A stretch of DNA of 64,000 nt. Source: Candidatus Binatia bacterium (GTDB lineage: Bacteria; Desulfobacterota; Binatia; Bin18). Shown here piece by piece: positions 1 to 14,840 of this stretch (position 1 is the first letter of the stretch; the number at the start of each line of letters is the position of its first letter). The position numbers and the translations under genes were made by a program. Location of the stretch: NCBI GenBank assembly GCA_963664395.2, contig OY761159.2:2400001-2464000 (forward strand). The letters are read 5' to 3'. The notes beneath the pieces are model-generated. The model was not told the origin of the DNA. It ran no database searches and was given only the letters and a program-made list of their open reading frames with translations.

Positions 1-751
1 ACGAAAGAAAGCGTCCCGGTAGGCAAACGCCTTCGAGCATGACCTGCAATTCGGGCATATGCGAGTCGGCCAGTGTTTCGCCCGAGATCGTGCGCCAGGG
101 CTTGAACCATTCCCGCCCGGCGGTCAGCGTACCAATACGAGCTTCGACCCCGTCCGAGACCAGCAGCGCCGCGTTCATGCTGAACAGCGTCGGCAGTTCG
201 GCCTTATAGGTTTGGAGCTGTTGCCAGGCGGTCCAGATGGTCGCGTCTTCGTCTGCCGGGTTCTTGAGTTCGATGACCCCGAGCGGCAGGCCGTTGACGA
301 ACAGCACCACATCGGGCCGGCGCTCGTGCTTATTCTCAACAACCGTCAACTGATTGACCGCCAGCCAGTCGTTATTGATGGGAGTGTCGAAATCAATCAC
401 TCGCGCCTGCGCGCCACGTACCGTCCCGTTGTCCGTGCGATACTCTACGGTCACGCCGTCTACGAGCATGCGGTGAAAGGCACGGTTGCGGGCCTCAGGT
501 GTTGGCCCGTCCGGGTGGGTCAGCTTACGAAAAGTGTCGTCCAGGGCTTCGGTCGGCAGGTTGGGGTTGAGTAGAGCGAGGGTATCGCGCAGCCGCCGTT
601 CCAGCACCACCGCTCCGTAGTCGCTGCGCTCTGCACTCGGCGTATCGGGCGCGATGTCGGGGCCGTGGGCGATGCTCCAGCCAAGGCTTTCGAGCCAGGC
701 CAGGGCGGCCTCTTCGACAGTGGATTCGGTGAAGATTGTCACTGTAGTCAA
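1..751 (-). CDS. hsdR: Type I restriction endonuclease subunit R, N-terminal part (runs off the window edge)
   Basis: Manual translation: (M)[24 protein letters not shown]...[22 protein letters not shown], the typical HsdR N-terminal nuclease region. TTG at 751 overlaps the upstream stop; GTG at 742 is an alternative start. Missing from the ORF track because the stop lies outside the window. Confidence 0.93.
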
Positions 752-1251
752 ATAAGGAAGTCGCGTTTTACCCAAAACAGTGAGATAAGGAGAATGATAT
801 GGAGGACAACAAAGGCTATCGGAATCCACTTTTCTATGCGAGTTACGGCACTATAGGATGGCCCACGACCCTCTCCGGCCAACTGCCACTCATAGGCATA
901 CAGCGCAACTGGTAAATGTTCTTCGAGTTGGTGGATTATTTGGAATTTGACAGTATTCAGGTCTCTATGGGACTGAATGATCTGGTACCAAAGCCAAGAG
1001 ACCAGGATGCCGAGTATCGGAACCAGCGTCGCCCAATAGCTCTGTACGGAACCTTCAGATTGAATGCCGTATAGGGTAACGAGCGCGATGTTGAGTGTGA
1101 GAAGATATCGACTCGAAGCCACCCGTCGTGCGCTGACATTCTCGGCTGACTGTACATACATCTTATATTGCTCAAGGAGGTCCGTGCCGAAGGAATCACC
1201 ATACGTCTCTTTCGTGTAATGAATCAGACACCCATTCGACTGCTGGGACAT
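748..1251 (-). CDS. Small 3-TM membrane protein, putative pore-forming defence effector (RipA/octameric membrane protein-like)
   Basis: [19 protein letters not shown] helix followed by three hydrophobic segments; tightly coupled to the TIR gene and hsdR. Family label is from recalled similarity only. Confidence 0.7.
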
Positions 1252-1255
1252 CAGG

Positions 1256-1645
1256 CTATCTCTCTCCGTTAATCAGTCGTCTCAGGTCTTCCCATTTCCA
1301 TCTGTACATATTGTCCGAACTACGTGCCGACCTTGGCTTTTTGCAAGTCTTGCGCCTCCGGCCTTTCAGCAGGAAGTACGGCTTTTTTTCCTCATGTAAG
1401 ATAGTGACCTCTGCTGTCACTCCAGCCGCATCATGAGTATGTTCTCCGCAGATGACGATAGTAAGGTCGGTTCTGCGTATAATATCCCGGACTTTCTTCT
1501 TCCACTTTTCGGTTATCGGCTCCCTCAAAGACCAATCCGTGATGCTGAATGGCGAGTCCTGGTCCTTTGCTTGCCCAACCAAAGACCCCCGGAGGTTATT
1601 ATCGTGGTCAAAGTCGAAACTGATGAAGACACTTTTCGTAGCCAT
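1256..1645 (-). CDS. TIR domain protein (ThsB/DUF1863-like)
   Basis: VFISFDFDHD beta-A motif, DWSLREP, TIVICGEHT, and GVTAEV containing the putative catalytic Glu. Confidence 0.85.
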   Translation of the reverse strand: MATKSVFISFDFDHDNNLRGSLVGQAKDQDSPFSITDWSLREPITEKWKKKVRDIIRRTDLTIVICGEHTHDAAGVTAEVTILHEEKKPYFLLKGRRRKTCKKPRSARSSDNMYRWKWEDLRRLINGER

Positions 1646-1654
1646 GACTCAACC

Positions 1655-3112
1655 TCATTTCCTTAGAGATGCCCGATTCGACAATTTCATCACAAGATTA
1701 GAAGCATAGTCTTTCGTACTCTCTCTTTTAACTGTGATCCTCACGGGAACGATCTTTTTGGCTGGACTCGATAGGTTTTCGGCGTGAATTTCGCATTCAA
1801 TCGCACCCTGAATTTCATCTTGGTCACTAGCGGCGAAGATTTCGAACTTAAAGCACTTTTCAGCAATTCCATGACGCCATTGTTCACATTCCAGCCTAAA
1901 CGATTCCACCGGTATCAGAGGTTGATCGGGTTTATAGTAGAAAGCATCAGGGTCACGTGAGTGAAATCGCGTCATATCTGGATTGAGTGATGGCGGGAGA
2001 CGGAACAACGAATCAGGGACGTCGCGATAAGCCAAATCGGTAATCCGTCGGCTCTTCGGTGGTTCCGGTGGTCCCGGAAGGGGCCTGTCGAGTATTCTCC
2101 GCCTTTTTGAGTGTTCGTTGTCTTCTGGTTGCGGAGGACAGATTTTGAAATTTCCCTTTGATGTAATAACTACCAGGGCGTTCTTCCCTGGCCGACTTCC
2201 TTTATTTGTTACGACAAAGCGGAAAACCGGCGCCCCTGCTTCGCGTAGTAATGCCCGATGCAGATTGGATAGTACCTTTTTGCACTTTTTTATCCACGCC
2301 GGATATTCCTCTTCTCTGTATTTATCGATATCTCCCTCTGACGGAGGACTATACAATCCACTCATTTCGCGTATGTCTCCAAACGTAGAGACTCTACCGG
2401 TCCGTCCGTAAGAACCGAACGTCACGATGGGGAATTTGTCTTTTAACTGGTCCATAAACGTGGATATTTCACGTTCGTTCAGAGGTCCAAAGGGACATGG
2501 GACCTCAAGAACGTCGATTTCGCTTTCGTTGTCGTCCAAACACTTAATCTGGAACTCAGGCTCAGTTTTCCTCAAGCGAGTAACTTCTTCTTTTAGGCGT
2601 CGATTTTCTCTTTCTTTCTCATTACTTTCGGGCGGTAGCAACCAAGCGTCTTGGATCTTAACAAATGGTAAATCAAGACTTCTCGCCGTCATCATTGGGC
2701 CAGTATCATGAGTGAGTAGCCGGACATCCGCCTCAGGATGCTGCTGCTTGTATTGATGCAGAAAGCCGACAATCTCATCGTCGGCTTTGGTGTAATCAAG
2801 ACGACCTTTCACCTCTGGACTGGGGACACTGGATGACTCTAGCATCAGCTTGACTTGTGGACCCTTTTCCCGAATGACGCTGCAATCCTTTTCAATGATG
2901 CTTCGAAATAGGGAGGAGGTCTTGCGAGCGCGTTGGGCAACTCGGCCGTTCCCGCGATGTTTTTGCTGGTCTATCTCCCGTTGAACCGTGCGGCAAACAA
3001 TCAAATGGACCTCTTCAAAATCTGCCCACTCTGACCAGTCGAGTTCTTCCAGAGGGCGGCATTGAATGAACAAGTTCGTATCAGGAAAGAAGGAGAGGAT
3101 ACGTGTTGTCAT
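1655..3112 (-). CDS. PIN domain protein with coiled coil and unknown C-terminal domain
   Basis: DTNLFIQ, TVQREID, ADDEI and LLTHD acidic PIN motifs. ATG at 3112 has a GAGG RBS; the ORF-track extension to 3223 overlaps hsdS. Confidence 0.8.
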   Translation of the reverse strand: MTTRILSFFPDTNLFIQCRPLEELDWSEWADFEEVHLIVCRTVQREIDQQKHRGNGRVAQRARKTSSLFRSIIEKDCSVIREKGPQVKLMLESSSVPSPEVKGRLDYTKADDEIVGFLHQYKQQHPEADVRLLTHDTGPMMTARSLDLPFVKIQDAWLLPPESNEKERENRRLKEEVTRLRKTEPEFQIKCLDDNESEIDVLEVPCPFGPLNEREISTFMDQLKDKFPIVTFGSYGRTGRVSTFGDIREMSGLYSPPSEGDIDKYREEEYPAWIKKCKKVLSNLHRALLREAGAPVFRFVVTNKGSRPGKNALVVITSKGNFKICPPQPEDNEHSKRRRILDRPLPGPPEPPKSRRITDLAYRDVPDSLFRLPPSLNPDMTRFHSRDPDAFYYKPDQPLIPVESFRLECEQWRHGIAEKCFKFEIFAASDQDEIQGAIECEIHAENLSSPAKKIVPVRITVKRESTKDYASNLVMKLSNRASLRK

Positions 3113-3137
3113 TCTTACTTCCTCTTTGAGAATCGTT

Positions 3138-4532
3138 TCACACCCCCACCCGTGACTCGCCAGAAATGAGCTTGGGCAACAGCGTGTCTCGCAAGGTAGC
3201 AAGAGTTCGGGATTTCTCTGCATTCCGAGAAGCGAGCAAAAAGAAGGGCTGAACTATCTTGCCAAACACTTTCGAGACCTTACCTCTGCCGGGAAGTGGT
3301 AGCCGGTAATTTGAGAGGGCGCTTACAGGGACTCGCTGGCGGCCGCTCGAACCCGTCATACTTTGAATGGCAAACTCGCGGAAGCCAGCGCTCCGTGCGA
3401 GACAATAGGCAAATTCATCAGGAAGCGGAGGTTTAGACCGCATGACAATATACTCGGTCGAGCCCCACCCGACCGTATCTTTCTCCAAGAAATCGACATG
3501 CGCCGTCTTCCCGTTTTCCAGGCACGGCGTAATACGGGCGACAAGGGTATCTCCGTTGGCAAAACGCGTTCCCGAACCAAAAGGCCGATCTACCACCGTG
3601 TTCGGTGTATGACCTTTCGTTGGCATGTTTGCCATATCGAGATACGGGGCTACTTCTCCTTTTCGGAGAGGCCGCGTCGGATTGATATCAATTGCTTCAG
3701 GAAGTGGCTTTACCTCCCACCCCGCCGGTATCTCACCCAACTCCGAATCGACAAAGTGGTCGGGGAATAACGCCGCAATGCTTGGGTCCATCCGGTCAAG
3801 ATATGCACGGGCGCGTTCCACGGTCCAATCAAGGGGGGCGAGATTGGCGGCGTGACGCTTGAGGGCGGCTTTGGCATGAACGGGGTCGAAGTATATGAAC
3901 CAACTCTTGAAGAGCGCCCGCGTCATCTCTTCGAGTGTTTCGTTCATGCGGCGGTTGAGTTCGATCTTGTCGTCCAGGGTTCCAAGGATGTGGGCGATGG
4001 TGTGTTGTTCGGGGAGGGGTGGAATAGACAGGCTGAAATTTGGGATGTCCACGCACTTCAAACTGTCGAATATGGCTCCAACATTGATATACATTCTGAC
4101 TTGATCCCACCATTGAGGACCACGAACAAGCCATCGGAGAAATGGCTTTAACACCTTTGTTCCGTCAGACCGGAGTAAGACCAAGTTTTGTCCCAGCGCA
4201 AATTCAAAATCCTCTGGGACATTTCCGGTTTCGCCAGGATTGCATCGTCGAGACAGCACGATATCGTAGGGTCTGGGGTTCGCCTTCCGTGTCCATTCCT
4301 CGAAGTGTTCACGAGTTATGCGGCGAGCACCGTTAAGATCAATCCGACCATCCTTAACCTGTGGGATTGCAACGTAGGGAAAGCCACTTTCTGAAGCTGG
4401 TGGAGTGCGGTGCTCGCAGTCAATCAGCGAAATTCCGGCCTCACGGAGCGAAAGAACCGGCCACCCACCTTCGGACCCCACTTTTTTCACTCCTTTCCGA
4501 ACCACTGCGTTTGTCATGCGGCCCTGCGTCAA
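3138..4532 (-). CDS. hsdS: Type I RM specificity subunit
   Basis: Two TRDs, conserved PPLPEQ..IAHILGTLDDKIELNRRMNETLE and LRDTLLPKLISGE, plus SELGEIPAGW. Exact start uncertain. Confidence 0.93.
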   Translation of the reverse strand: MTQGRMTNAVVRKGVKKVGSEGGWPVLSLREAGISLIDCEHRTPPASESGFPYVAIPQVKDGRIDLNGARRITREHFEEWTRKANPRPYDIVLSRRCNPGETGNVPEDFEFALGQNLVLLRSDGTKVLKPFLRWLVRGPQWWDQVRMYINVGAIFDSLKCVDIPNFSLSIPPLPEQHTIAHILGTLDDKIELNRRMNETLEEMTRALFKSWFIYFDPVHAKAALKRHAANLAPLDWTVERARAYLDRMDPSIAALFPDHFVDSELGEIPAGWEVKPLPEAIDINPTRPLRKGEVAPYLDMANMPTKGHTPNTVVDRPFGSGTRFANGDTLVARITPCLENGKTAHVDFLEKDTVGWGSTEYIVMRSKPPLPDEFAYCLARSAGFREFAIQSMTGSSGRQRVPVSALSNYRLPLPGRGKVSKVFGKIVQPFFLLASRNAEKSRTLATLRDTLLPKLISGESRVGV

Positions 4533-4727
4533 TTCGACGCCCGATGAAACACCAAAGCGTCCACGATGTCGCCGGTACTCGGCGCTTCCTTGCGGCGTAA
4601 ATCCGGTTTCTCATGCTGTCCTTCCCAGTCCTCGGTTCCAACATCCAGTTGGATTTTGGTGACTGAGATACGATCTGGCGCTATGTCGTCGAAGCCGCCT
4701 TCGTAGCCGTTCACGACCACGCGCAGG

Positions 4728-6461
<1,734 letters not shown>

Positions 6462-6571
6462 GTGCTGTTTCTCCCGTTCTCGTCACACCGACGCGGCTTG
6501 ACCCTGATCCGCCTTGACTGAGCCGGTGCGTATGGGCTGTGTTTGAATATGCAGGCAGGGACACGGCGGTG

Positions 6572-7360
6572 CTATTTCCCCTCAAAGCGGGGGCGGCGTT
6601 TTTCCATGAACGCTTTTACCCCTTCTTGGTAGTCCTGGCTCCCGAAGCAACGGGTTGACCAAGTCTTGACGGCATCCATGTCGCGCAGGGTGGCCGCTTT
6701 GGCACTCTCTCGGACGAAAAACTTGTGGGCCGCCACACTCAAGGGAGCGTTATCAGCCATCTTGAGCGCGTATTCACGGGTATAGGATTCAAGCTCGGCC
6801 TTGGGCAGGACGCGATTGACCAGACCCATATGGGCCGCCTCTTCGGCGTTATAGACCCGGGCGGTCATAAGAATCTCGGCCGCGTTGGAGACTCCGACGA
6901 TATGGACGAGCCGTTCGACCCCCCGCTCAAGTGGATAGGCAATACCCAGACGGGCGGCCGGAATCCCAAAGCGGGCATCATCGGCACACAGCCGCAGGTC
7001 GCACATGACGGCCACCGAACAGCCCCCGCCCATGCAGAAGCCATGAATCATGGTGATGACCGGCTTTTCCAAGCCGGCGAGCGATTTTAGCGCTCCGTCT
7101 ACCGCCTGGTTATAGCCCCGCGTTGTCTCAGCCCCGGAGCGGACCTTGCCAAACTGCGAAATATCGGCACCTGAGACAAAGGCTTCCTCGCCCGCGCCGC
7201 GCAGGAGGAGGACGCGGAGATCATCATCGGCGGCGACCTCGGCGACGAGTTGTGGCAGGGTGTGCCACATGTCAAGGTCAACCGCATTGCGACGCTCGGG
7301 TTTGTTGAAGACAATCCAGGCTAAAGGGGGCTCTTTGTGAAGAAGGAGTGTGTCTGACAT
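6572..7360 (-). CDS. Enoyl-CoA hydratase/isomerase family protein
   Basis: AFVSGADI, GFCMGGG, FGIPAARLG, and C-terminal EGVKAFMEKRRP. ATG at 7360 has a GGAG RBS. Confidence 0.93.
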   Translation of the reverse strand: MSDTLLLHKEPPLAWIVFNKPERRNAVDLDMWHTLPQLVAEVAADDDLRVLLLRGAGEEAFVSGADISQFGKVRSGAETTRGYNQAVDGALKSLAGLEKPVITMIHGFCMGGGCSVAVMCDLRLCADDARFGIPAARLGIAYPLERGVERLVHIVGVSNAAEILMTARVYNAEEAAHMGLVNRVLPKAELESYTREYALKMADNAPLSVAAHKFFVRESAKAATLRDMDAVKTWSTRCFGSQDYQEGVKAFMEKRRPRFEGK

Positions 7361-7639
7361 CGCGAGCTCCTGTGTTTTTTCTTTTGCGCGGTTGCGTCCG
7401 CCAACCATAGCGCTCTGGCTGGGGTGTTGTCCATTGCTGTGTCTCTTCGCTCGCCCTCACCCGGAATGTTCCGGCTGCCTGGTATTCCTTCTCTATCCAG
7501 TGTATCATCACGATAAAAGAAGTTGACTTTTAATGCGCCCTTTCTCTAGCAGAAATATTCTTTCACAAACTTCATACGACCCCCTGCCGTAGTGACACAC
7601 GTTGCGTAATTTTAGCGGCAGGAAAGACAGGGGGAAAAC

Positions 7640-8713
7640 ATGGCAGATGGCTGGCAAAATAAAGGAGGCGCTTCGCCTAGCGAGGAACTCCTCCAAGGTC
7701 TTGAAGACCTGAAACGGACCATACAACGTTTTACCAAAGGGGCTGGTGTCTGGCTAATCGTCGCCGCCCTTGCGCTGTTGTGGCTTGGCTCCGGTTTCTA
7801 TGTGGTCGGTCCGAGCGAACAGGGTATCGTGCTGCGTTTTGGCGCAGTGGTGAATGAAATGGGCCCTGGCTTGCGCTTCCATATGCCGTGGCCGATTGAA
7901 AAACATGTTGTGGTGGATATTGCGCGGGTGCGCAGCTCCCAAGTCGGCTACCGTCCGTCGGCAGCAGCACCGGGACGGAGCGGTGGGAGCGGTACCCGTA
8001 CAATTCCACAAGAAGCCTTGATGTTGACCGGAGACGAAAACATCGTTGAGGTCAACCTGGTGGTGCAGTATCGCATTCAGGACCCGGTCAAATATCTTTT
8101 TGGTGCCTATGAGCCGGAGGGAATGCTGCACTCATCGGCAGAGGTCGCTCTGCGCAGTGCGGTTGGCGGGAATACGATTGACTACACGATGACCGACGGC
8201 CGGCTTGAGGTGCAGGAGCAGGCCAAGAGCGCGCTCCAGGGACTTCTGGACGTGTATCAAACCGGCCTGTTCGTCACCGAGGCCCGCCTGCTTGCCGTCG
8301 ATCCTCCCAATGAAGTGCGGGATGCCTTTAACGATGTCGTCCGGGCCCTGGAAGACCGAGACCGCCTGCGCCAGGAGGCTGAAGGCTATCAGGAAGACGT
8401 CGTGCCCAAGGCGCGGGGTGAGGCGGCCCAGATGATACAGCAAGCAGAAGGGTACAAGGCGCAGCGGGTCATCCGCGCCCAAGGTGACGCCGAGCGTTTT
8501 CTGCGCATCCTGGCCGAATATGAGAAATCCAAGGCGGTGACACGCGACCGGCTCTACTTGGAAAGTGTCGAGCGGATCATGCCCACTATGGAAAAATTCA
8601 TTATGGATGCACAGAACAGCGGGGGTGTTGTGCCCCTGTTGCCGCTGAAGGATCTTGGCTCAGGCGCGGCCGCGGCCGCGGCCGGTGCCGTGGTGAGTCA
8701 GGAGGCGAGATAA
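7640..8713 (+). CDS. hflK: FtsH protease modulator HflK
   Basis: N-terminal TM helix, SPFH domain with LMLTGDENIVEV, VTRDRLYLE; followed by hflC. Confidence 0.93.
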   Translation: MADGWQNKGGASPSEELLQGLEDLKRTIQRFTKGAGVWLIVAALALLWLGSGFYVVGPSEQGIVLRFGAVVNEMGPGLRFHMPWPIEKHVVVDIARVRSSQVGYRPSAAAPGRSGGSGTRTIPQEALMLTGDENIVEVNLVVQYRIQDPVKYLFGAYEPEGMLHSSAEVALRSAVGGNTIDYTMTDGRLEVQEQAKSALQGLLDVYQTGLFVTEARLLAVDPPNEVRDAFNDVVRALEDRDRLRQEAEGYQEDVVPKARGEAAQMIQQAEGYKAQRVIRAQGDAERFLRILAEYEKSKAVTRDRLYLESVERIMPTMEKFIMDAQNSGGVVPLLPLKDLGSGAAAAAAGAVVSQEAR

Positions 8714-9580
8714 ATGGTACTGCGATTAGTTGTCGGGCTGGGTTTAGTCCTTGTCTTTGTGGCTGCCCAAGCTGCTTTCACTATTGGTGAGTGGGAGCAG
8801 GGGATGGTGGTGCAGTTCGGGAATCCCAAGCGTATCATTCAGGAGCCCGGTTTATACTTTAAGTTGCCGATGGCCCAAAATCTGGTCCGCTTTGAAAAAC
8901 GTGTCCTCACGACAGATGCCCGCGAGTCCGAATACATCACGCTCGATAAAAAGCGTGTCCTGGTGGACCATGTTTCCCGCTGGCGTATCGAAGACCCCCT
9001 CCAGTTCTACCGGAGTGTACGCGACCGCCGCCGGGCCATGGCCCGGCTGGATGACATTATTTCCGCCCGTCTCCGGCAGGAAATTGCCACGCACAATTTT
9101 CTGGACCTGATCCGCGAGAAACGCGAAGACATTATGGCTATTGTCACCAGGGATACGCGCGAGACCGCGAAGTCTTTTGGGATTGAAGTCACCGATGTCA
9201 GGATCAAGCGGCTCGATCTGCCTGAAGCAGTGCAGGCCAGCGTGTTTGCGCGTATGCGAGCGGAGCGGGAACGGATTGCCAAGCGCTACCGGGCCGAAGG
9301 GGAAGAGCAGGCGCAGCATCTCCGGGCGGTCGCTGACCGGGAGCGTGAAGTGATCCTCGCCACGGCGTATGAGTCGAGCGAAAAGCTGAAAGGCGCGGGC
9401 GATGCCGAGGCAACGAGTACGTATGGGCAGGCGTTTGGGCAGGATGCAGAGTTCTATGCCTTTACGCGTCGGCTCCAGGCGTATGAGAAAATTCTGAGCA
9501 ACGACACGACTTTGATCTTGAATACCGACTCGGAACTCCTGAGCTATTTGCAGGGGCCGGGGCAGGGCCTGAGCGAATAG
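8714..9580 (+). CDS. hflC: FtsH protease modulator HflC
   Basis: SPFH domain, RMRAERERIAKRYRAEG, FYAFTRRLQAY. Confidence 0.93.
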   Translation: MVLRLVVGLGLVLVFVAAQAAFTIGEWEQGMVVQFGNPKRIIQEPGLYFKLPMAQNLVRFEKRVLTTDARESEYITLDKKRVLVDHVSRWRIEDPLQFYRSVRDRRRAMARLDDIISARLRQEIATHNFLDLIREKREDIMAIVTRDTRETAKSFGIEVTDVRIKRLDLPEAVQASVFARMRAERERIAKRYRAEGEEQAQHLRAVADREREVILATAYESSEKLKGAGDAEATSTYGQAFGQDAEFYAFTRRLQAYEKILSNDTTLILNTDSELLSYLQGPGQGLSE

Positions 9581-9594
9581 GCGAGTCGGGGGAC

Positions 9595-9861
9595 ATGCCC
9601 GGACTTTTTCGGCTGCTGCTTTTTCTCGGGATTGGATACCTGATTGTTTCAGGCATCCGACGGCTCTTTCTGCCGGCTGCCGCGTCGAGCCAGAAGCAAG
9701 CCGCACACACTACGGACCTGGACAGCGTGCCCTTAGTCCAAGATCCTCAGTGTGGTCGTTTTGTTCCGCAGAACGAAGCGATTGTGGTGTCACGGCGCGG
9801 TCGGTCCCAAACGCTCTATTTCTGTAGTGAAGAGTGCCGCGCCGCCTACAAGGCTGCATAA
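9595..9861 (+). CDS. Small membrane protein with YHS/TRASH-like domain
   Basis: N-terminal hydrophobic helix; QDPQCG...YFCSEEC. Confidence 0.75.
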   Translation: MPGLFRLLLFLGIGYLIVSGIRRLFLPAAASSQKQAAHTTDLDSVPLVQDPQCGRFVPQNEAIVVSRRGRSQTLYFCSEECRAAYKAA

Positions 9862-9872
9862 GGTCCCGACCC

Positions 9873-10787
9873 TTACCGGAATGCCGGAATGATCTCTTCC
9901 CCGATCAGGCGTGTATTTTCGTCAATATAGTCCGTTGGGCAGGCCGAGGGCAGGATGACCGTTTTCGCTCCCGCGTCAATATACTCCTGAAGGCGCTTGC
10001 GACATTCTTCGGGCGTTCCGGCGAGCGCGTATTTGCCGATCAGCTTGGAAAAATCCTGGGCATATTGTTTGCCCAACCGGCTTGCCGCCATCTCCCGACC
10101 TTTCTCGCCGTCCGCATGGGTGGCCGTAAAGATAAACACACCGGGATTAAACGATTCGACATCCCGCCCGTACTCTGTGCGCAGACTTTTGATCTTCTCA
10201 ATACTGTCGTGCAATTGTTCGGGCGTATACATATACGGCAGCCAACCGTCAGCATATTTTGCCGTGCGTTTCATGGCCGGTTCCTTCCGGCCCGCAACCC
10301 AGATGGGCGGACGCGGTTTCTGAACGGGCGCCGGCTCAATACTGACTTCATTCAGCGTGGTGTACTTCCCCTCAAAGGACACGGTTTTCTCGGTCCATAA
10401 GCGACGGATCACTTCGAGGGCTTCGTTGGTACGTGAGCCGCGCTGATTCACGGGCACGCCACACGCCTCGAACTCTTTTGGGAACTCTCCGCCAATGCCC
10501 ACGCCAAAGTTGTAGCGTCCATTTGAGGCCACATCGAGCGCGGCCCCCATTTTTGCCACAAGTGCGGCTGGATATAACGGCAGGAGGACGATGGAGCTGA
10601 GCAGTTTAATCTTCTGTGTTGCGCCGGCCGCAACCGAGAGTGAAATGAATGTGTTGCCGACCGGACCGTGAAACATGACGTGTTCGCCGCAACCGAGGAA
10701 GTCAAAACCTAAGTGCTCTGCACGCTGGGCAAACTCTCCAATATGGTCCATTGTTGGCAAAGCCGTCCCAAATTCAACATCTCCCAT
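9873..10787 (-). CDS. LLM-class flavin-dependent oxidoreductase
   Basis: GEHVMF, LDVASNGR..FGVGIG, PPIWVAG, YADGW. Confidence 0.92.
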   Translation of the reverse strand: MGDVEFGTALPTMDHIGEFAQRAEHLGFDFLGCGEHVMFHGPVGNTFISLSVAAGATQKIKLLSSIVLLPLYPAALVAKMGAALDVASNGRYNFGVGIGGEFPKEFEACGVPVNQRGSRTNEALEVIRRLWTEKTVSFEGKYTTLNEVSIEPAPVQKPRPPIWVAGRKEPAMKRTAKYADGWLPYMYTPEQLHDSIEKIKSLRTEYGRDVESFNPGVFIFTATHADGEKGREMAASRLGKQYAQDFSKLIGKYALAGTPEECRKRLQEYIDAGAKTVILPSACPTDYIDENTRLIGEEIIPAFR

Positions 10788-10872
10788 ACGTCCTCCTACC
10801 GAAGTGATGTTCCCTCATATCTGTGAACGCGGAAAAGAATCAAGCCGTCCCTGGGCCGTCTCTATTCGTGCG

Positions 10873-11211
10873 CTACTCCTCCGACTTTTTGTCCATCCTC
10901 TGCCACACGCCTTTATTGCGTAGGTGTTTGACATCCTGGGCGGTCTGTTGCACCCGGATACCCATTGCGCCCAGGAGTTCAGTGCTCATATCCGCGGTAA
11001 TCTGATCTTTGACGCTGCCGTTGCCGTGTGGGTCGGCGTTCATAAAGGCTTCTATTTGTTCGCGCGGCAGACCGGTTTCGATACATAAGTCAAGGAATTG
11101 CAGCAAGCTGAGTTGCCCGCGCTGCCGGGTGTATATCTCGTGTAAGCGTTGGCAGCCTTCACATATGCGTTTGAACCACCCCGCGCCCTTCCGGCAGTAT
11201 GAGCATTTCAT
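10873..11211 (-). CDS. Hypothetical protein with N-terminal CxxC...CxxC zinc ribbon
   Basis: MKCSYC...ICEGC; start set to the ATG at 11211. Confidence 0.7.
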   Translation of the reverse strand: MKCSYCRKGAGWFKRICEGCQRLHEIYTRQRGQLSLLQFLDLCIETGLPREQIEAFMNADPHGNGSVKDQITADMSTELLGAMGIRVQQTAQDVKHLRNKGVWQRMDKKSEE

Positions 11212-11306
11212 TACCACCAGCCTAACGGTTCGCCCGGAGGGGAACAACGGCAGGGCCATACGACCCGTGTTTGCCCCCCACACCAATCCACGCTACACCC
11301 CCCAGT

Positions 11307-12023
11307 ATGTCTGCCACCGCGCTGGTGATCTTTGCCAAATGGCCGCTGCCCGGACAGGTCAAGACGCGCCTGTGTCCGCCGCTCCGGCCTGACCAAGCCG
11401 CAGAACTGGCGCGCTGCTTTCTCCTGGATACGGTTGAACGGGTTTCCCGACTCGAAGAGGGGCGGGTCTGGGTTGCCTTTACCCCGGCTGATAGCGAGCC
11501 TCGCTTTCGGGCGCTGCTGCCTGCCTCCGTCCGTTACCTGCCGCAACGGGGTAATGATCTTGGTGAGCGTGAGCTGAATATCTTTGTGGATCTGTTCGGG
11601 AAAGAAGTGAAGAGGGTGGCGATTATGGGGAGTGATATTCCCTCCGTGCCGCTCGCCTATCTCCGCTTGGCCTTCGACCTGTTGAAGACCCCGGGCTGTG
11701 ATGCCGTCTTCGGCCCGAGTAGTGACGGCGGCTACTACTGTATCGGCGCACAGGCCGGCCATGCCGCGCTGCCAGCCCTGTTTGAGGATATTGAGTGGAG
11801 TACGGCAAAGGTCATGCAACAGACGTTGGGACAGGCCCGCTTGCATAACATGAATGTAGGCCTGATCCCATGCTGGTACGATGTGGATACAGTAGAGGAT
11901 GTACGGAAACTGGCGGAGCAGTTGAGGGAAACGCGGCATGGAGACGCTGCCCCACGAACCCGGAATTTTTTAGAACGAATCGCTCCTACTCTTTATCGGT
12001 GTGGTGTTCCAAAGCCCGGATAA
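11307..12023 (+). CDS. DUF2064/TIGR04282-type glycosyltransferase-like protein (CofC-like fold)
   Basis: FAKxPxPGQVKTRL, QRGNDLGER, MGSDIP, GPSSDGGYY, WYDVDT. Confidence 0.88.
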   Translation: MSATALVIFAKWPLPGQVKTRLCPPLRPDQAAELARCFLLDTVERVSRLEEGRVWVAFTPADSEPRFRALLPASVRYLPQRGNDLGERELNIFVDLFGKEVKRVAIMGSDIPSVPLAYLRLAFDLLKTPGCDAVFGPSSDGGYYCIGAQAGHAALPALFEDIEWSTAKVMQQTLGQARLHNMNVGLIPCWYDVDTVEDVRKLAEQLRETRHGDAAPRTRNFLERIAPTLYRCGVPKPG

Positions 12024-12627
12024 TGAAATCTGCGGTTCCCGTCTCACCCCACACGCTTGAGTCGAGTTGGAGATTATACCCGTCTGAGTCGCGCCATTCG
12101 GCCTGGTAGAACTTGTGGACATAATCCGTCCGCAGTTTATCCATCCCGGTGATGCGGCGTTTGGCCTCGTCTGTGGTGAGTCCCTCCACTTTCATAACGC
12201 GCTCAATGCGGGCGTCGAGCGAGGCAAAAACAAAAACATGGAGGGTCTTGGGCCTGTTGGCCAGAATGCAGTTTCCGCCGCGTCCGACAATAATGGTGCT
12301 GCCCTCCTGCGAGACCTCTTCGATTAGCGTGCGGGTCAGGCGCGCGAGTTGGCTGTCTTTGAGACGCAACGGCGGGGGGATGTTATACGCAATTTCAAAG
12401 CCGCCCACGCCAAATGATTCGACGACACGTTCGATAAACGATCCCACTCGTTCATCTTTGGTTTCAATGTAATCCTTAGAGACATGTTGCCGGGACGCAA
12501 TCGTTTGGACAATTTCTTTATCCCAGACTTTCCAGTTGAGGCGTTGTCCAAGGTCGCGGGCAATCAGGCTCCCCCCACTGCCATACTGATGGGACAAGGT
12601 GAGAAGGGTAATGGGCGTACTCATCAT
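11986..12627 (-). CDS. Cytidylate kinase-like family protein
   Basis: SHQYGSGG, IIVGRGG, HVFVFASLDARIER. Confidence 0.85.
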   Translation of the reverse strand: MMSTPITLLTLSHQYGSGGSLIARDLGQRLNWKVWDKEIVQTIASRQHVSKDYIETKDERVGSFIERVVESFGVGGFEIAYNIPPPLRLKDSQLARLTRTLIEEVSQEGSTIIVGRGGNCILANRPKTLHVFVFASLDARIERVMKVEGLTTDEAKRRITGMDKLRTDYVHKFYQAEWRDSDGYNLQLDSSVWGETGTADFIIRALEHHTDKE

Positions 12628-12747
12628 TCGTTCCTTCCTCGGAGTCTTCTCGCAATTCTGATGAAAGGCGGACTCTCAGCGCGGCTATTCTAGGAGGAGG
12701 TGCGTAGGGCTGTCAATTCTTGTTGGTCTTATTGAGGAGCTTTATGA

Positions 12748-12787
12748 TCTTGGTCTGTCTTGGTCTGTCTTGGTCTGTCTTGGTCTG
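12748..12787. repeat. Tandem repeat (TCTTGGTCTG)x4
   Basis: Four perfect 10-bp units in the intergenic region upstream of the OmpA-family gene. Confidence 0.92.
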
Positions 12788-12888
12788 ACCCTACCAGACT
12801 AGCGTTTGAGAACGGAGGCGCTTAATGAGTAAACGCGCCCTCCAACAGGCATGTAGATGTTGGCACGTTTACTCATTATAGTACTGAC

Positions 12889-13929
12889 GTGCTTATCGCG
12901 CTTGCTACTGTTCTGTGCGGGTTTGTGTGGGGGACGATTCACGGCCAGATCTGGCTGCAACTGAACGTCCGGTGGATGGCGCTGGCCGCCCGGTCCCTTC
13001 AAGGTGTTCGCAAAAGGCCGAATCGTCGCGTGGAAGCCGTCCTGCCTACGTCCTTTACCGCCTCGCATAAATTTCTGGCGGCCCTCTTCGGAACCGTAGT
13101 GACGGGTGGAATTCTCGCTGTCCTTGCATCCAACTGGTCTTTCCTGGCGCTGTACCCGATTGGACTGTTTGCCGGTTTCTCCCCCGCCCTTATTCAAACG
13201 TATTGGCGTGCGTCTGCTCTGGTTGGGGTAGTGATGCTTATTGGAGTGACGGGTGGGCTGCTCTATGAGAATGAAGGCCCTGGCGGTCCTGTCAGTTCAG
13301 GCGATAGTGGCGATAGTGGCGATAGTGGCGATAGTGGCGATAGTGGCGATATGAGCAGTGCTGGTAAGCATGGCGGTTCTGTCGATTCAGGCGATAGTGG
13401 CAGTCCTGTCGGTTCTGGCGAGCAAGTCCGCGTGTCAGAGATGGCGGGCGGGCAGGAGTTGCCCAATCAAGACGCAGGGACACAACCGGCCCCGCCTTCG
13501 TTACCCCCACCGACTTTTGTAGAAAAGGGAGAAGACGCTCCGGAAGAGGTTCCAGAAGACGCTCCGGAAGAAATTGCCCACATTAGCCTGCCGGGTATTC
13601 CTTTTTCTTTTAACGACCAAACGATTCAGCCCGAACACCTGACGGAGCTGAATGAGGCGGTTCGTATTCTCAACGACAACCCGAATATATCTGTCCTGAT
13701 TGAGGGCTACTCTGATGCGGTTGGCTCCGAGTCGTTTAACCTGGAACTCTCGCGCGACCGGGCGGAAATTGTACGAGAGTATCTGGTGGAGTACGGGATT
13801 GCAGCCGAGCGCCTCCGAGTAGTTGGGCGAGGAGAAATTGACCCCCTCGCCCCGAATGCCAAAGATGATGGCTCGGACAATCCGGAAGGCAGAGCCATGA
13901 ACCGCCGCGTCGAACTCTCGGTTGAATAG
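12889..13929 (+). CDS. Membrane protein with C-terminal OmpA-like peptidoglycan-binding domain
   Basis: N-terminal TM segments, low-complexity linker, IEGYSD..G...NLELSRDRA...NRRVE. Start uncertain. Confidence 0.85.
   Translation: MLIALATVLCGFVWGTIHGQIWLQLNVRWMALAARSLQGVRKRPNRRVEAVLPTSFTASHKFLAALFGTVVTGGILAVLASNWSFLALYPIGLFAGFSPALIQTYWRASALVGVVMLIGVTGGLLYENEGPGGPVSSGDSGDSGDSGDSGDSGDMSSAGKHGGSVDSGDSGSPVGSGEQVRVSEMAGGQELPNQDAGTQPAPPSLPPPTFVEKGEDAPEEVPEDAPEEIAHISLPGIPFSFNDQTIQPEHLTELNEAVRILNDNPNISVLIEGYSDAVGSESFNLELSRDRAEIVREYLVEYGIAAERLRVVGRGEIDPLAPNAKDDGSDNPEGRAMNRRVELSVE
13300..13350. repeat. In-frame 9-bp tandem repeat (GGCGATAGT)x5.7 encoding (GDS)n
   Basis: Read directly from the sequence. 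Confidence 0.92.
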
Positions 13930-13973
13930 GCGTGCTGATTACACCGTCCGGTGAAAAAAGGACAGCATTATTT

Positions 13974-14840
13974 CTATGCTCCGCCGGGCAGGGAGATGGG
14001 AATCGTCTCTGCCAACGCTGGAGTTTTCCCTTCTTCGTCTGAAAAACGTCCCGCGGCGATAGTGTCATCGTGAGAAAACGAAACCCATAAATTTTTCTGT
14101 CTGGCCTCAGCGTAGAGCCGTTTTTTAGCGGCGATGGTGACTAACGGGTCAGTGTCATACGCCGCATTCCAGGCGAGACGCAGGTGAGCTGTCGTAGGAA
14201 CAATATCGGCGAAGTGAATCAAGCCGGTTCCACCCGTTTCAACAATGACACATTGGTGCGGGCTGGTATGGCCGCCTGAGACGGTTGTGCGCACCTGAGC
14301 AGTCAGTCTCGTATCACCGTCGATGAGTACAATGTGCTCAAGCGGCTCAAGGCATTCCGGGGCGTGGCGGTAGGCCGCGGCAATACGTTCGTCCGGGGGA
14401 TGGGTGGCCAACTCCCACTCCGCCCGTTGCATAACAACACGGGCGTTGGGAAAAACCGGGGTGATCGTCCCGTTGTCCGCTTTATCAATGACGCCGCCCA
14501 CATGATCAAAATGCAGATGGCTCAGCACGACGTGCGTCACGTCTTCCGGGGCGTAGCCGAGGGCGCGCAACTGGCCAGTCAGGCCGTCTCCGCGCCGGGG
14601 CGTAAAAAATTGTTGCTCACGCGTACTCAGACGATTCCCGATGCCGGTATCAACGAGTATGAGTTCACTCCGAGTCACAATCAGCGGGCAGGTCAGACTC
14701 ATGGTAATGCGTCCGCGTTCGTTGGGCTGCTTCTCCCGTTGCCAGATTTCACGCGGGACAATGCCGAACTGCGCGCCGCCGTCGTCCCACCACAGCCCGT
14801 CGTTCAAAAAGTGAATGGTGATACCACCGGCTTTCAGCAT
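13974..14840 (-). CDS. MBL-fold metallo-hydrolase
   Basis: SHLHFDHVGG (HxHxDH), DGGAQFG, GHT; start set to the ATG at 14840. Confidence 0.9.
   Translation of the reverse strand: MLKAGGITIHFLNDGLWWDDGGAQFGIVPREIWQREKQPNERGRITMSLTCPLIVTRSELILVDTGIGNRLSTREQQFFTPRRGDGLTGQLRALGYAPEDVTHVVLSHLHFDHVGGVIDKADNGTITPVFPNARVVMQRAEWELATHPPDERIAAAYRHAPECLEPLEHIVLIDGDTRLTAQVRTTVSGGHTSPHQCVIVETGGTGLIHFADIVPTTAHLRLAWNAAYDTDPLVTIAAKKRLYAEARQKNLWVSFSHDDTIAAGRFSDEEGKTPALAETIPISLPGGA

Follow-up and report, generated by a model that had tools for sequence, protein, structure and literature searches.

A preprint of December 2025 (Yirmiya et al., bioRxiv 10.64898/2025.12.03.692087) reported a defence-island screen for operons with a TIR gene, proposed 29 types of Thoeris and described seven new ones as validated. 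In type V, as given in the text of that preprint, ThsB is combined with ThsF (DUF2270, PF10028), a protein with three transmembrane (TM) helices that is modelled as a ring resembling a channel, with basic pockets between its subunits, and is triggered by 3'cADPR to exert membrane-directed toxicity; type VII uses a SLATT effector and type X an ion channel. Here we describe a related arrangement in a stretch of 64,000 nt from Candidatus Binatia bacterium (contig OY761159.2, positions 2,400,001 to 2,464,000; hereafter the window), where the gene of a ThsB-type TIR protein directly precedes that of a three-TM protein of family PF24838 (8xMP, "octameric membrane protein"). Both genes are located inside a type I restriction-modification (RM) operon, next to a gene encoding a PIN_4 protein.

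In the EcoprrI type I RM operon, the interval between hsdS and hsdR likewise houses an abortive-infection gene, that of the anticodon nuclease PrrC. The proteins are unrelated, however, and PrrC depends on its RM partner whereas TIR-8xMP is common without RM genes. Types II (TIR with Macro-TM) and VII of Thoeris resemble what is predicted for the pair in that a TIR signal activates an oligomerising, membrane-spanning killer (10.64898/2025.12.03.692087, main text), but Pfam found neither a Macro nor a SLATT domain in 8xMP at E up to 0.1, the distinction from SLATT being drawn without a profile comparison. BcTir (PDB 8fz9) is also a small stand-alone TIR protein with one partner gene and anti-phage activity, but in the account of bioRxiv 10.1101/2023.05.26.542521 its partner BcTpr is a TPR protein and not a membrane protein. 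Finally, RipA of Francisella is described as a small inner-membrane protein (PMC4322802) and belongs to the same Pfam family by automatic cluster names, a tie that comes from names and not from the RipA sequence; a passage in one review links it to LpxA and intracellular growth and not to a TIR partner (PMC12444477).

We favour, with a probability of about 0.6, the explanation that TIR and 8xMP form a two-gene, Thoeris-like abortive-infection module that travels as mobile cargo in the type I RM operon, with the PIN_4 gene in a neighbouring slot. In this model, the ThsB-type TIR would sense phage infection and convert NAD+ into an ADP-ribose-derived signal. Subunits of 8xMP (RipA family) would be assembled into a ring in the inner membrane, and the signal would act on its conserved cytoplasmic side; the membrane would then be breached or depolarised by this ring and phage growth would stop. 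The module, placed directly upstream of hsdR, would be translationally coupled to it, and PIN_4, in an adjacent variable cargo slot, is most probably a candidate nuclease defence that consists of a single gene and is separate from the pair, or else an optional second effector. Defence of the Thoeris kind is suggested because the pairing is conserved, Glu79 of the TIR is invariant, the neighbours are defence genes, cytoplasmic residues of 8xMP are conserved and type V provides a precedent. Cargo status is suggested because G+C drops over these genes, the contents of the slot vary and the pair is missing at 19 of the 20 best HsdR-relative loci.

The likeness to type V includes the two-gene layout, a ThsB-type TIR followed by a small three-TM protein, and ThsF, as presented in the preprint, is also devoid of a recognisable signal-binding domain. 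The effectors differ by family (PF24838 here, PF10028 there, the window protein having no Pfam match to the latter), and the signal, ring and defence of 8xMP are predictions. TIR-8xMP is probably a new Thoeris variant, and it may already be among the 29 putative types of the preprint, whose text (Figure 1C, Table S1 and the domain of the type IX effector not included) contains none of the names PF24838, 8xMP and RipA. A preliminary description of the window, made from its sequence alone, had proposed non-canonical TIR signalling; this proposal is partly supported, and the system looks less unusual than it implied, TIR proteins with three-TM ring effectors being already validated as type V (10.64898/2025.12.03.692087, main text). 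The three genes between hsdS and hsdR are the following:

1256..1645, minus strand: ThsB-type TIR protein, 129 aa, the predicted sensor and NAD-processing enzyme (Pfam PF08937, E 5e-7; PADLOC ThsB1, E 1.4e-5)
748..1251, minus strand: 8xMP/RipA-family membrane protein, 167 aa, three TM helices, the predicted effector of the pair (Pfam PF24838, E 7.5e-35)
1655..3112, minus strand: PIN_4 protein, 485 aa, a facultative neighbour (Pfam PF13638, E 1.3e-11, residues 10-150)

Conservation of the TIR-8xMP pair

TIR and 8xMP constitute a conserved unit, of which PIN_4 is not a part. We compared individual genome, metagenome, viral and plasmid loci (labelled L006, L007, L008 and so on), and the samples used to assess pairing consist of the relatives closest to the query. 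Scanning species-representative genomes yielded 14 loci, in Binatia, Thermodesulfobacteriota and Chloroflexota, and a TIR gene was found directly upstream of 8xMP on the same strand in all 12 loci with an intact 8xMP. The pair has decayed at L021, where TIR is present and 8xMP is cut after residue 44, and at L020, where only the 3' end of 8xMP is left. From the metagenomes, 485 relatives were confirmed and the best 80 retained (37-84% identity); with custom HMMs, the ORF directly upstream was recognised as a same-strand TIR in 67 of these 80 loci, and five of the 13 others have less than 150 nt of upstream sequence. An annotated TIR gene was also directly upstream in three of four viral contigs and in five of the six plasmids inspected (Haematospirillum, Synechococcus, Polaromonas, Novosphingobium and Paenarthrobacter; none at this position in Leptolyngbya). 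Several operons have the order TIR-TIR-8xMP, with an extra TIR as in Thoeris (L017-L019, L055, L056, L061, L062, L067, L074 and L075). The co-occurrence of the TIR and membrane genes, which had been put forward as a check, is therefore very consistent across phyla, plasmids and viral contigs, and the conserved operon partner expected beside a Thoeris TIR is found here.

Away from RM operons, the pair lies in defence-gene neighbourhoods. The genome of the window possesses a second locus (L006, C1:1604000-1622000) with the operon PIN7-TIR-8xMP-TIR at 7376-9414, whose 8xMP is only about 27% identical to the first copy. Beside it, at 9434-14418, we found an HTH gene, a HigB/HigA-like pair and a type III CBASS-like set composed of SMODS/CD-NTase, bacterial HORMA, an AAA ATPase, a 187-aa gene without a family and a WYL protein. 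Elsewhere the pair has as neighbours Cas1 with a reverse transcriptase and a CAP12 TIR (L094), GmrSD, DUF499 and QueC/TGT (L129), AIPR (L118), RES (L104), or Abi_C and T5orf172 (L105). On the Paenarthrobacter plasmid (L172, 1-3950), a TIR-caspase pair with the layout of type IV Thoeris lies 3 kb from the TIR-8xMP pair.

The TIR protein matches ThsB_TIR in Pfam, and its PADLOC matches, to ThsB1 and PDC-M50B, are weak. BcTir (8fz9) was its only match by sequence in the PDB, also a weak one (E 0.003). All 55 paired TIRs share S39, G67 and E79; we infer that E79 is the catalytic glutamate because, in the alignment to 8fz9, it falls on the Glu of the W-x-x-E motif, in agreement with what is known of such enzymes. 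The window thus encodes a ThsB-type TIR with the putative catalytic glutamate of Thoeris, in agreement with the preliminary description, which had noted a ThsB-like TIR with a plausible catalytic Glu and had correctly reported that the cassette has no SIR2, Macro or caspase effector. At L089 (2355-3329), a 324-aa protein directly upstream of 8xMP presents about 200 additional N-terminal residues before ThsB_TIR and could be a TIR with its own sensor domain.

The window's 8xMP scores 120.1 bits against PF24838, well above the gathering cut-off of 30, over profile positions 1-135 of 136. Its hydropathy profile and AF2 model (mean pLDDT 81; long helices 21-66, 73-110 and 131-166) both indicate three TM segments. 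Across 55 sequences, the conserved residues (E27, Y29, K30, R43, N99, K102, F103, E110, E121, W122 and Y133) sit in predicted cytoplasmic helices, and the short outer loop is not conserved. The conserved stretches comprise LLEQYK and S-x-RR in the N-terminal helix, S-x-x-D-L-N-x-x-K-F-x-x-I-H-x-L-E-x-x-L-P in the helix that follows TM2, an E-W motif and the helix preceding TM3. Ring formation is predicted from the Pfam and cluster names, its only source: in the ESM Atlas, the clusters neighbouring 8xMP bear the automatic name "RipA family octameric membrane protein", and 92-93% of their members contain PF24838; a search of the literature for 8xMP, PF24838 and a RipA octamer or cryo-EM structure yielded no source for "octameric". 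The preliminary description had compared the protein to oligomeric pore effectors without an obvious ligand-binding domain; the family name agrees with the former, and PF24838 was the only domain found.

The family is broad: at E up to 0.001 it has 2352 cluster representatives (50% identity), spread over Binatia, Thermodesulfobacteriota, Chloroflexota, Cyanobacteriota, Actinomycetota, Pseudomonadota, plasmids and viral contigs. Neither PADLOC 2.0.0 nor NCBIfam has a model that matched 8xMP, and no PDB chain was retrieved by sequence, single-sequence or profile search; NCBIfam likewise returned nothing for the other cassette proteins. The PADLOC run that the preliminary description had suggested therefore gave matches for the TIR only, PIN_4 and 8xMP having no model. 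A VIA fold search of the 8xMP model reached Z scores of up to 11.5, within the range common for helical models. Complex prediction of 8xMP with TIR scored 0.00 in a run without controls, which is evidence neither way. Among longer 8xMP proteins we did not find a TIR-8xMP fusion (the N-terminal extensions of P0324 and P0335 contain no TIR by Pfam or hhalign), and the search returned two 8xMP-HSDR_N fusions only. A further protein, P0360 (1546 aa), presents PQQ beta-propeller, NosD/beta-helix and Ig domains followed by an 8xMP domain at residues 1405-1541.

PIN_4 and the variable cargo slot

The preliminary description had assumed a fixed PIN-TIR-TM cassette of three genes. This was not supported as stated. 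The slot occupied by PIN_4 holds complete, unrelated systems elsewhere. A full PIN_4 gene beside the pair was found, other than in the window, in one of 13 genome loci (L008) and in none of the 80 metagenome loci; C-terminal remnants of it persist in four loci (L010, L013, L051 and L052). In other relatives, the interval between hsdS and TIR contains DUF2806 (L009), a SIR2 protein matching PDC-S65 (L011), KwaA and KwaB of Kiwa (L014), a KAP NTPase matching PDC-S20 (L021) or a second TIR (L017-L019), and the gap between 8xMP and hsdR can contain VapBC or other toxin-antitoxin genes. These varied contents argue for reading the operon as a hotspot for cargo and PIN_4 as a candidate in its own right. 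In L009, L011 and L012 (approximately 6423-7290), a VapBC-type pair lies between 8xMP and hsdR, and a duplicate of about 16 codons of the hsdR 5' end is found directly after 8xMP, which suggests that the VapBC-type pair was inserted at the hsdR start.

The PIN_4 protein itself is well defined. It scores 45.4 bits against PF13638 (cut-off 21.9) and belongs to a full-length family of 748 matches (45-84% identity over 97-100% of the length). Residues D11, E46, D48, D111, D112 and D136 are invariant in 41 sequences, so that the protein has the PIN fold with the conserved acidic active-site residues of its family. Its AF2 model (mean pLDDT 80.7) consists of a PIN domain similar to SMG6/EST1A, a coiled coil and two Ig-like beta-sandwich domains; Foldseek retrieved the PIN domains of SMG6 and EST1A (E 2-3e-4, 20-23% identity) as well as Ig-like domains. 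No match was found in PADLOC, or by sequence in the PDB.

PIN_4 was present in only two of the 401 genomes sampled from the window's phylum and in none of the viral contigs scanned. Plasmids provided six matches at 21-29% identity, and an Acidovorax plasmid carries a PIN_4 relative near hsdR without any TIR or 8xMP. A heuristic count suggests that nine of the 15 closest PIN_4 relatives share a contig with an 8xMP relative, within one lineage only. The genomes of five relatives yielded only the PIN_4 remnant at L010.

Linkage to type I restriction

The cassette region was analysed from the ORF listing and by direct reading of the gene junctions. All genes of the RM/cassette region are on the minus strand, in the order hsdM, 81-aa ORF, hsdS, PIN, TIR, 8xMP, hsdR, and the complete type I set of hsdM, hsdS and hsdR is present in this one operon (Pfam, PADLOC and the full hsdR read in L007, an ORF of 1075 aa). 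The RM features in the window are:

1..751, minus strand: 5' part of hsdR, which continues beyond the window start (Pfam HSDR_N, E 1.9e-47; PADLOC REase_I)
3138..4532, minus strand: hsdS, type I specificity subunit (Pfam Methylase_S; PADLOC Specificity_I, E 2.9e-112)
4529..4774, minus strand: 81-aa ORF between hsdM and hsdS, overlapping both (no family match in Pfam, PADLOC or NCBIfam)
4728..6461, minus strand: hsdM, type I methyltransferase (Pfam N6_Mtase, E 5e-109, and HsdM_N; PADLOC MTase_I, E 7.5e-221)

The junctions are tight: the TIR ATG follows the PIN stop by 9 nt, the 8xMP ATG follows the TIR stop by 4 nt, and the TGA of 8xMP overlaps the TTG start of hsdR by 4 nt (TTGA; an alternative GTG start lies 9 nt beyond the TTG). 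G+C content is 0.43-0.52 over approximately 750-3300, the region of the three cassette genes, versus 0.60-0.65 in hsdR and hsdM, a fall from about 0.62 to 0.45-0.50. These observations bear out the three AT-richer genes, the gaps of 9 and 4 nt and the 4-nt overlap of the preliminary description. That description did not include the gap of 25 nt between hsdS and the PIN gene, which contains a AGAGGAAG ribosome site. Neither promoter-like sites (4 found, 3.5 expected) nor terminator-like sites (7 found, 8.1 expected) between the genes exceeded the shuffle expectation, and co-transcription of the cassette with the RM genes is consistent with the spacing.

A tree of 8xMP placed the copies located between hsdS and hsdR in a single clade of 26 members (SH-aLRT 86), with L076 beside it in a position that the tree does not resolve. 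The sister of this clade comprises 19 members without hsd neighbours. Genes of the hsd set were found in 24 of the 26 metagenome loci L051-L076 and in 12 of the 14 genome loci, and two members of the clade, L015 and L017, have none within 6 kb. HsdR is 75-91% identical across phyla in the RM-embedded loci. Judged from these sequences, this looks like one capture into an RM operon followed by co-inheritance and horizontal spread. The Polaromonas plasmid provides another linkage, independent of the first, with the operon hsdM-hsdS-PDDEXK-LprI-hsdR-TIR-8xMP-PIN_12. The HsdR encoded there shares 52% identity with that of the window, and the 8xMP falls among distant lineages and well away from the RM clade.

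Restriction operons of this kind are nevertheless mostly found without the pair. Relatives of HsdR at E up to 1e-100 occur in 60 of the 401 sampled genomes, and at the best 20 HsdR-relative loci (61-100% identity) the pair is present only at the locus of the window.

A few observations concern the remainder of the island. On another contig of the same assembly (C6:4660-7815), a degraded second copy of hsdR matches the first over residues 23-477 (96% identity) and over residues 786-1075 (84% identity, with four stop codons). The position of the 81-aa ORF, which is 68% identical over 37 aa to sequence in L012, is taken in relatives by a 139-aa HepT-like/NTase_sub_bind gene (L009). The island is flanked by an enoyl-CoA hydratase gene on one side and by TetR/HlyD/AcrB genes on the other.

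Alternative explanations and implications

Several results weigh against a two-gene Thoeris-like module. The support for the function of the pair is computational. Fold searches with 8xMP gave generic helical bundles only (best Foldseek E 0.21), and neither Pfam nor the fold searches detected a recognisable nucleotide- or signal-binding domain such as SLOG or Macro. Aligning the 8xMP alignment to six DUF2270 proteins with hhalign detected no homology (probability 2.8%, E 0.016). Eight metagenome loci with 306-4392 nt of upstream sequence show no TIR; one of them is L124, where 8xMP lies 4 nt behind an SMC_N/AAA ATPase instead. In the 401-genome sample, PF24838 was found in 30 genomes, 18 of them over the cut-off, and a TIR neighbour at five of the 19 over-cut-off places inspected, the other 14 having none. 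Two TIR-less copies with high or mid scores lie between mnmE and rsmG (L025, 1402-1920, and L030), and automatic cluster names place Francisella RipA in the family. Because many members have no TIR, two of them are lodged between mnmE and rsmG and RipA is included, PF24838 is broader than its TIR-linked subgroup and the fold is not intrinsically a toxin. Lastly, the recurrent RNase neighbours and the two independent RM linkages hint that the two-gene picture may be incomplete. L025 and L030 are two genomes of one family, and the genes flanking the L025 copy appear very GC-rich, as judged from translations and not from a composition profile.

The RNase neighbours could reflect a three-part system in which the predicted RNase is an interchangeable third component, either a second effector acting on the same TIR signal or a regulator; we regard this as a tentative possibility. 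Four unrelated RNase-type families adjoin the pair on the same strand: PIN_4, 9 nt upstream in the window and in L008; PIN7, 51 nt upstream in the genome's second locus; PIN_12, 1 nt downstream of 8xMP on the Polaromonas plasmid; and a 222-aa protein with an RTasHEPN-like C-terminus, downstream at nine loci of the non-RM clade (L085, L093, L101, L104-L107, L111 and L120). PIN_4 retains its acidic active-site residues and its beta-sandwich domains could sense a signal, and in the text of the preprint RNases figure as putative Thoeris effectors and some operons are reported to encode two effectors (10.64898/2025.12.03.692087). However, most loci of the pair have no RNase gene, full PIN_4 is as rare as described above, and PIN7 and PIN_12 were found in none of the 162 loci scanned. 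In addition, the PIN_4 slot elsewhere holds independent systems (Kiwa, PDC-S65 and PDC-S20), PIN and HEPN genes are common in defence islands anyway, and the Acidovorax plasmid has its PIN_4 relative without the pair. A more elaborate version is very doubtful: PIN, TIR and 8xMP would act together, with TIR sensing an Hsd enzyme blocked by a phage anti-restriction protein and an NAD-derived signal opening the RipA-family ring and unleashing the interchangeable RNase. The simpler proposal that the pair alone serves as a restriction guard in the RM-embedded lineages, monitoring the type I enzyme and firing when an anti-restriction protein disables it, as PrrC does with EcoprrI, is unlikely. It would account for the clade of 26 between hsdS and hsdR, the overlap of the 8xMP stop with the hsdR start, the independent linkage in Polaromonas, the two database fusions of 8xMP to the HsdR N-terminus and the position that the pair shares with PrrC. 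Yet occurrence only with RM genes, as in PrrC, was not observed: the pair stands without hsd genes in the 19-member sister clade, at the genome's second locus, on plasmids, on viral contigs and, within 6 kb, at L015 and L017 of the RM clade itself. Close HsdR relatives mostly do not have it, the operon gathers unrelated cargo (VapBC, Kiwa and HepT-like genes), and the fusions could be frameshift or gene-calling artefacts at the 4-nt overlap. The guarding role of the preliminary description is thus possible for the embedded lineages and is not needed to explain the data.

It is also conceivable, and quite unlikely, that the roles are reversed, with TIR as an NAD+-depleting effector and the 8xMP ring as a membrane sensor or scaffold that activates it, for instance upon phage-induced perturbation of the membrane. 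Small proteins made of a TIR alone are active only once assembled, no ligand-binding domain is evident in 8xMP and PF24838 includes non-toxic, stand-alone members. On the other hand, 8xMP behind the ATPase of L124 follows the pattern of an effector changing sensors, and the ThsB-type TIR is the signal-making sensor in eleven named Thoeris types, as far as the preprint text describes them (10.64898/2025.12.03.692087). A module with no part in defence, which would serve membrane homeostasis in relation to RipA function with a TIR-like regulatory partner, is most improbable. It could draw on the RipA-like cluster names, on the interaction of RipA with LpxA in lipid A synthesis reported in the review cited above (PMC12444477) and on the copies among housekeeping genes, between mnmE and rsmG. 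It is at odds with the patchy spread of the family across the phylum sample, with the low G+C of the cassette and with the presence of the pair on plasmids, on viral contigs, in defence-gene neighbourhoods and as decayed copies at L020 and L021.

If the three-part, RM-wired version were true, the RipA family would gain its first biochemical function, that of a nucleotide-gated membrane ring. If the pair defends as predicted by the two-gene model, PF24838 would constitute a further, widespread family of Thoeris effectors, one for which PADLOC 2.0.0 has no model, and the family of the poorly understood RipA would acquire a testable role as a ligand-gated membrane ring. The recurrent but swappable RNase neighbour represents a further lead. 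Finally, the RM-embedded clade, together with the arrangement in Polaromonas, is naturally suited to distinguishing cooperation between abortive-infection cargo and restriction from mere co-travel.

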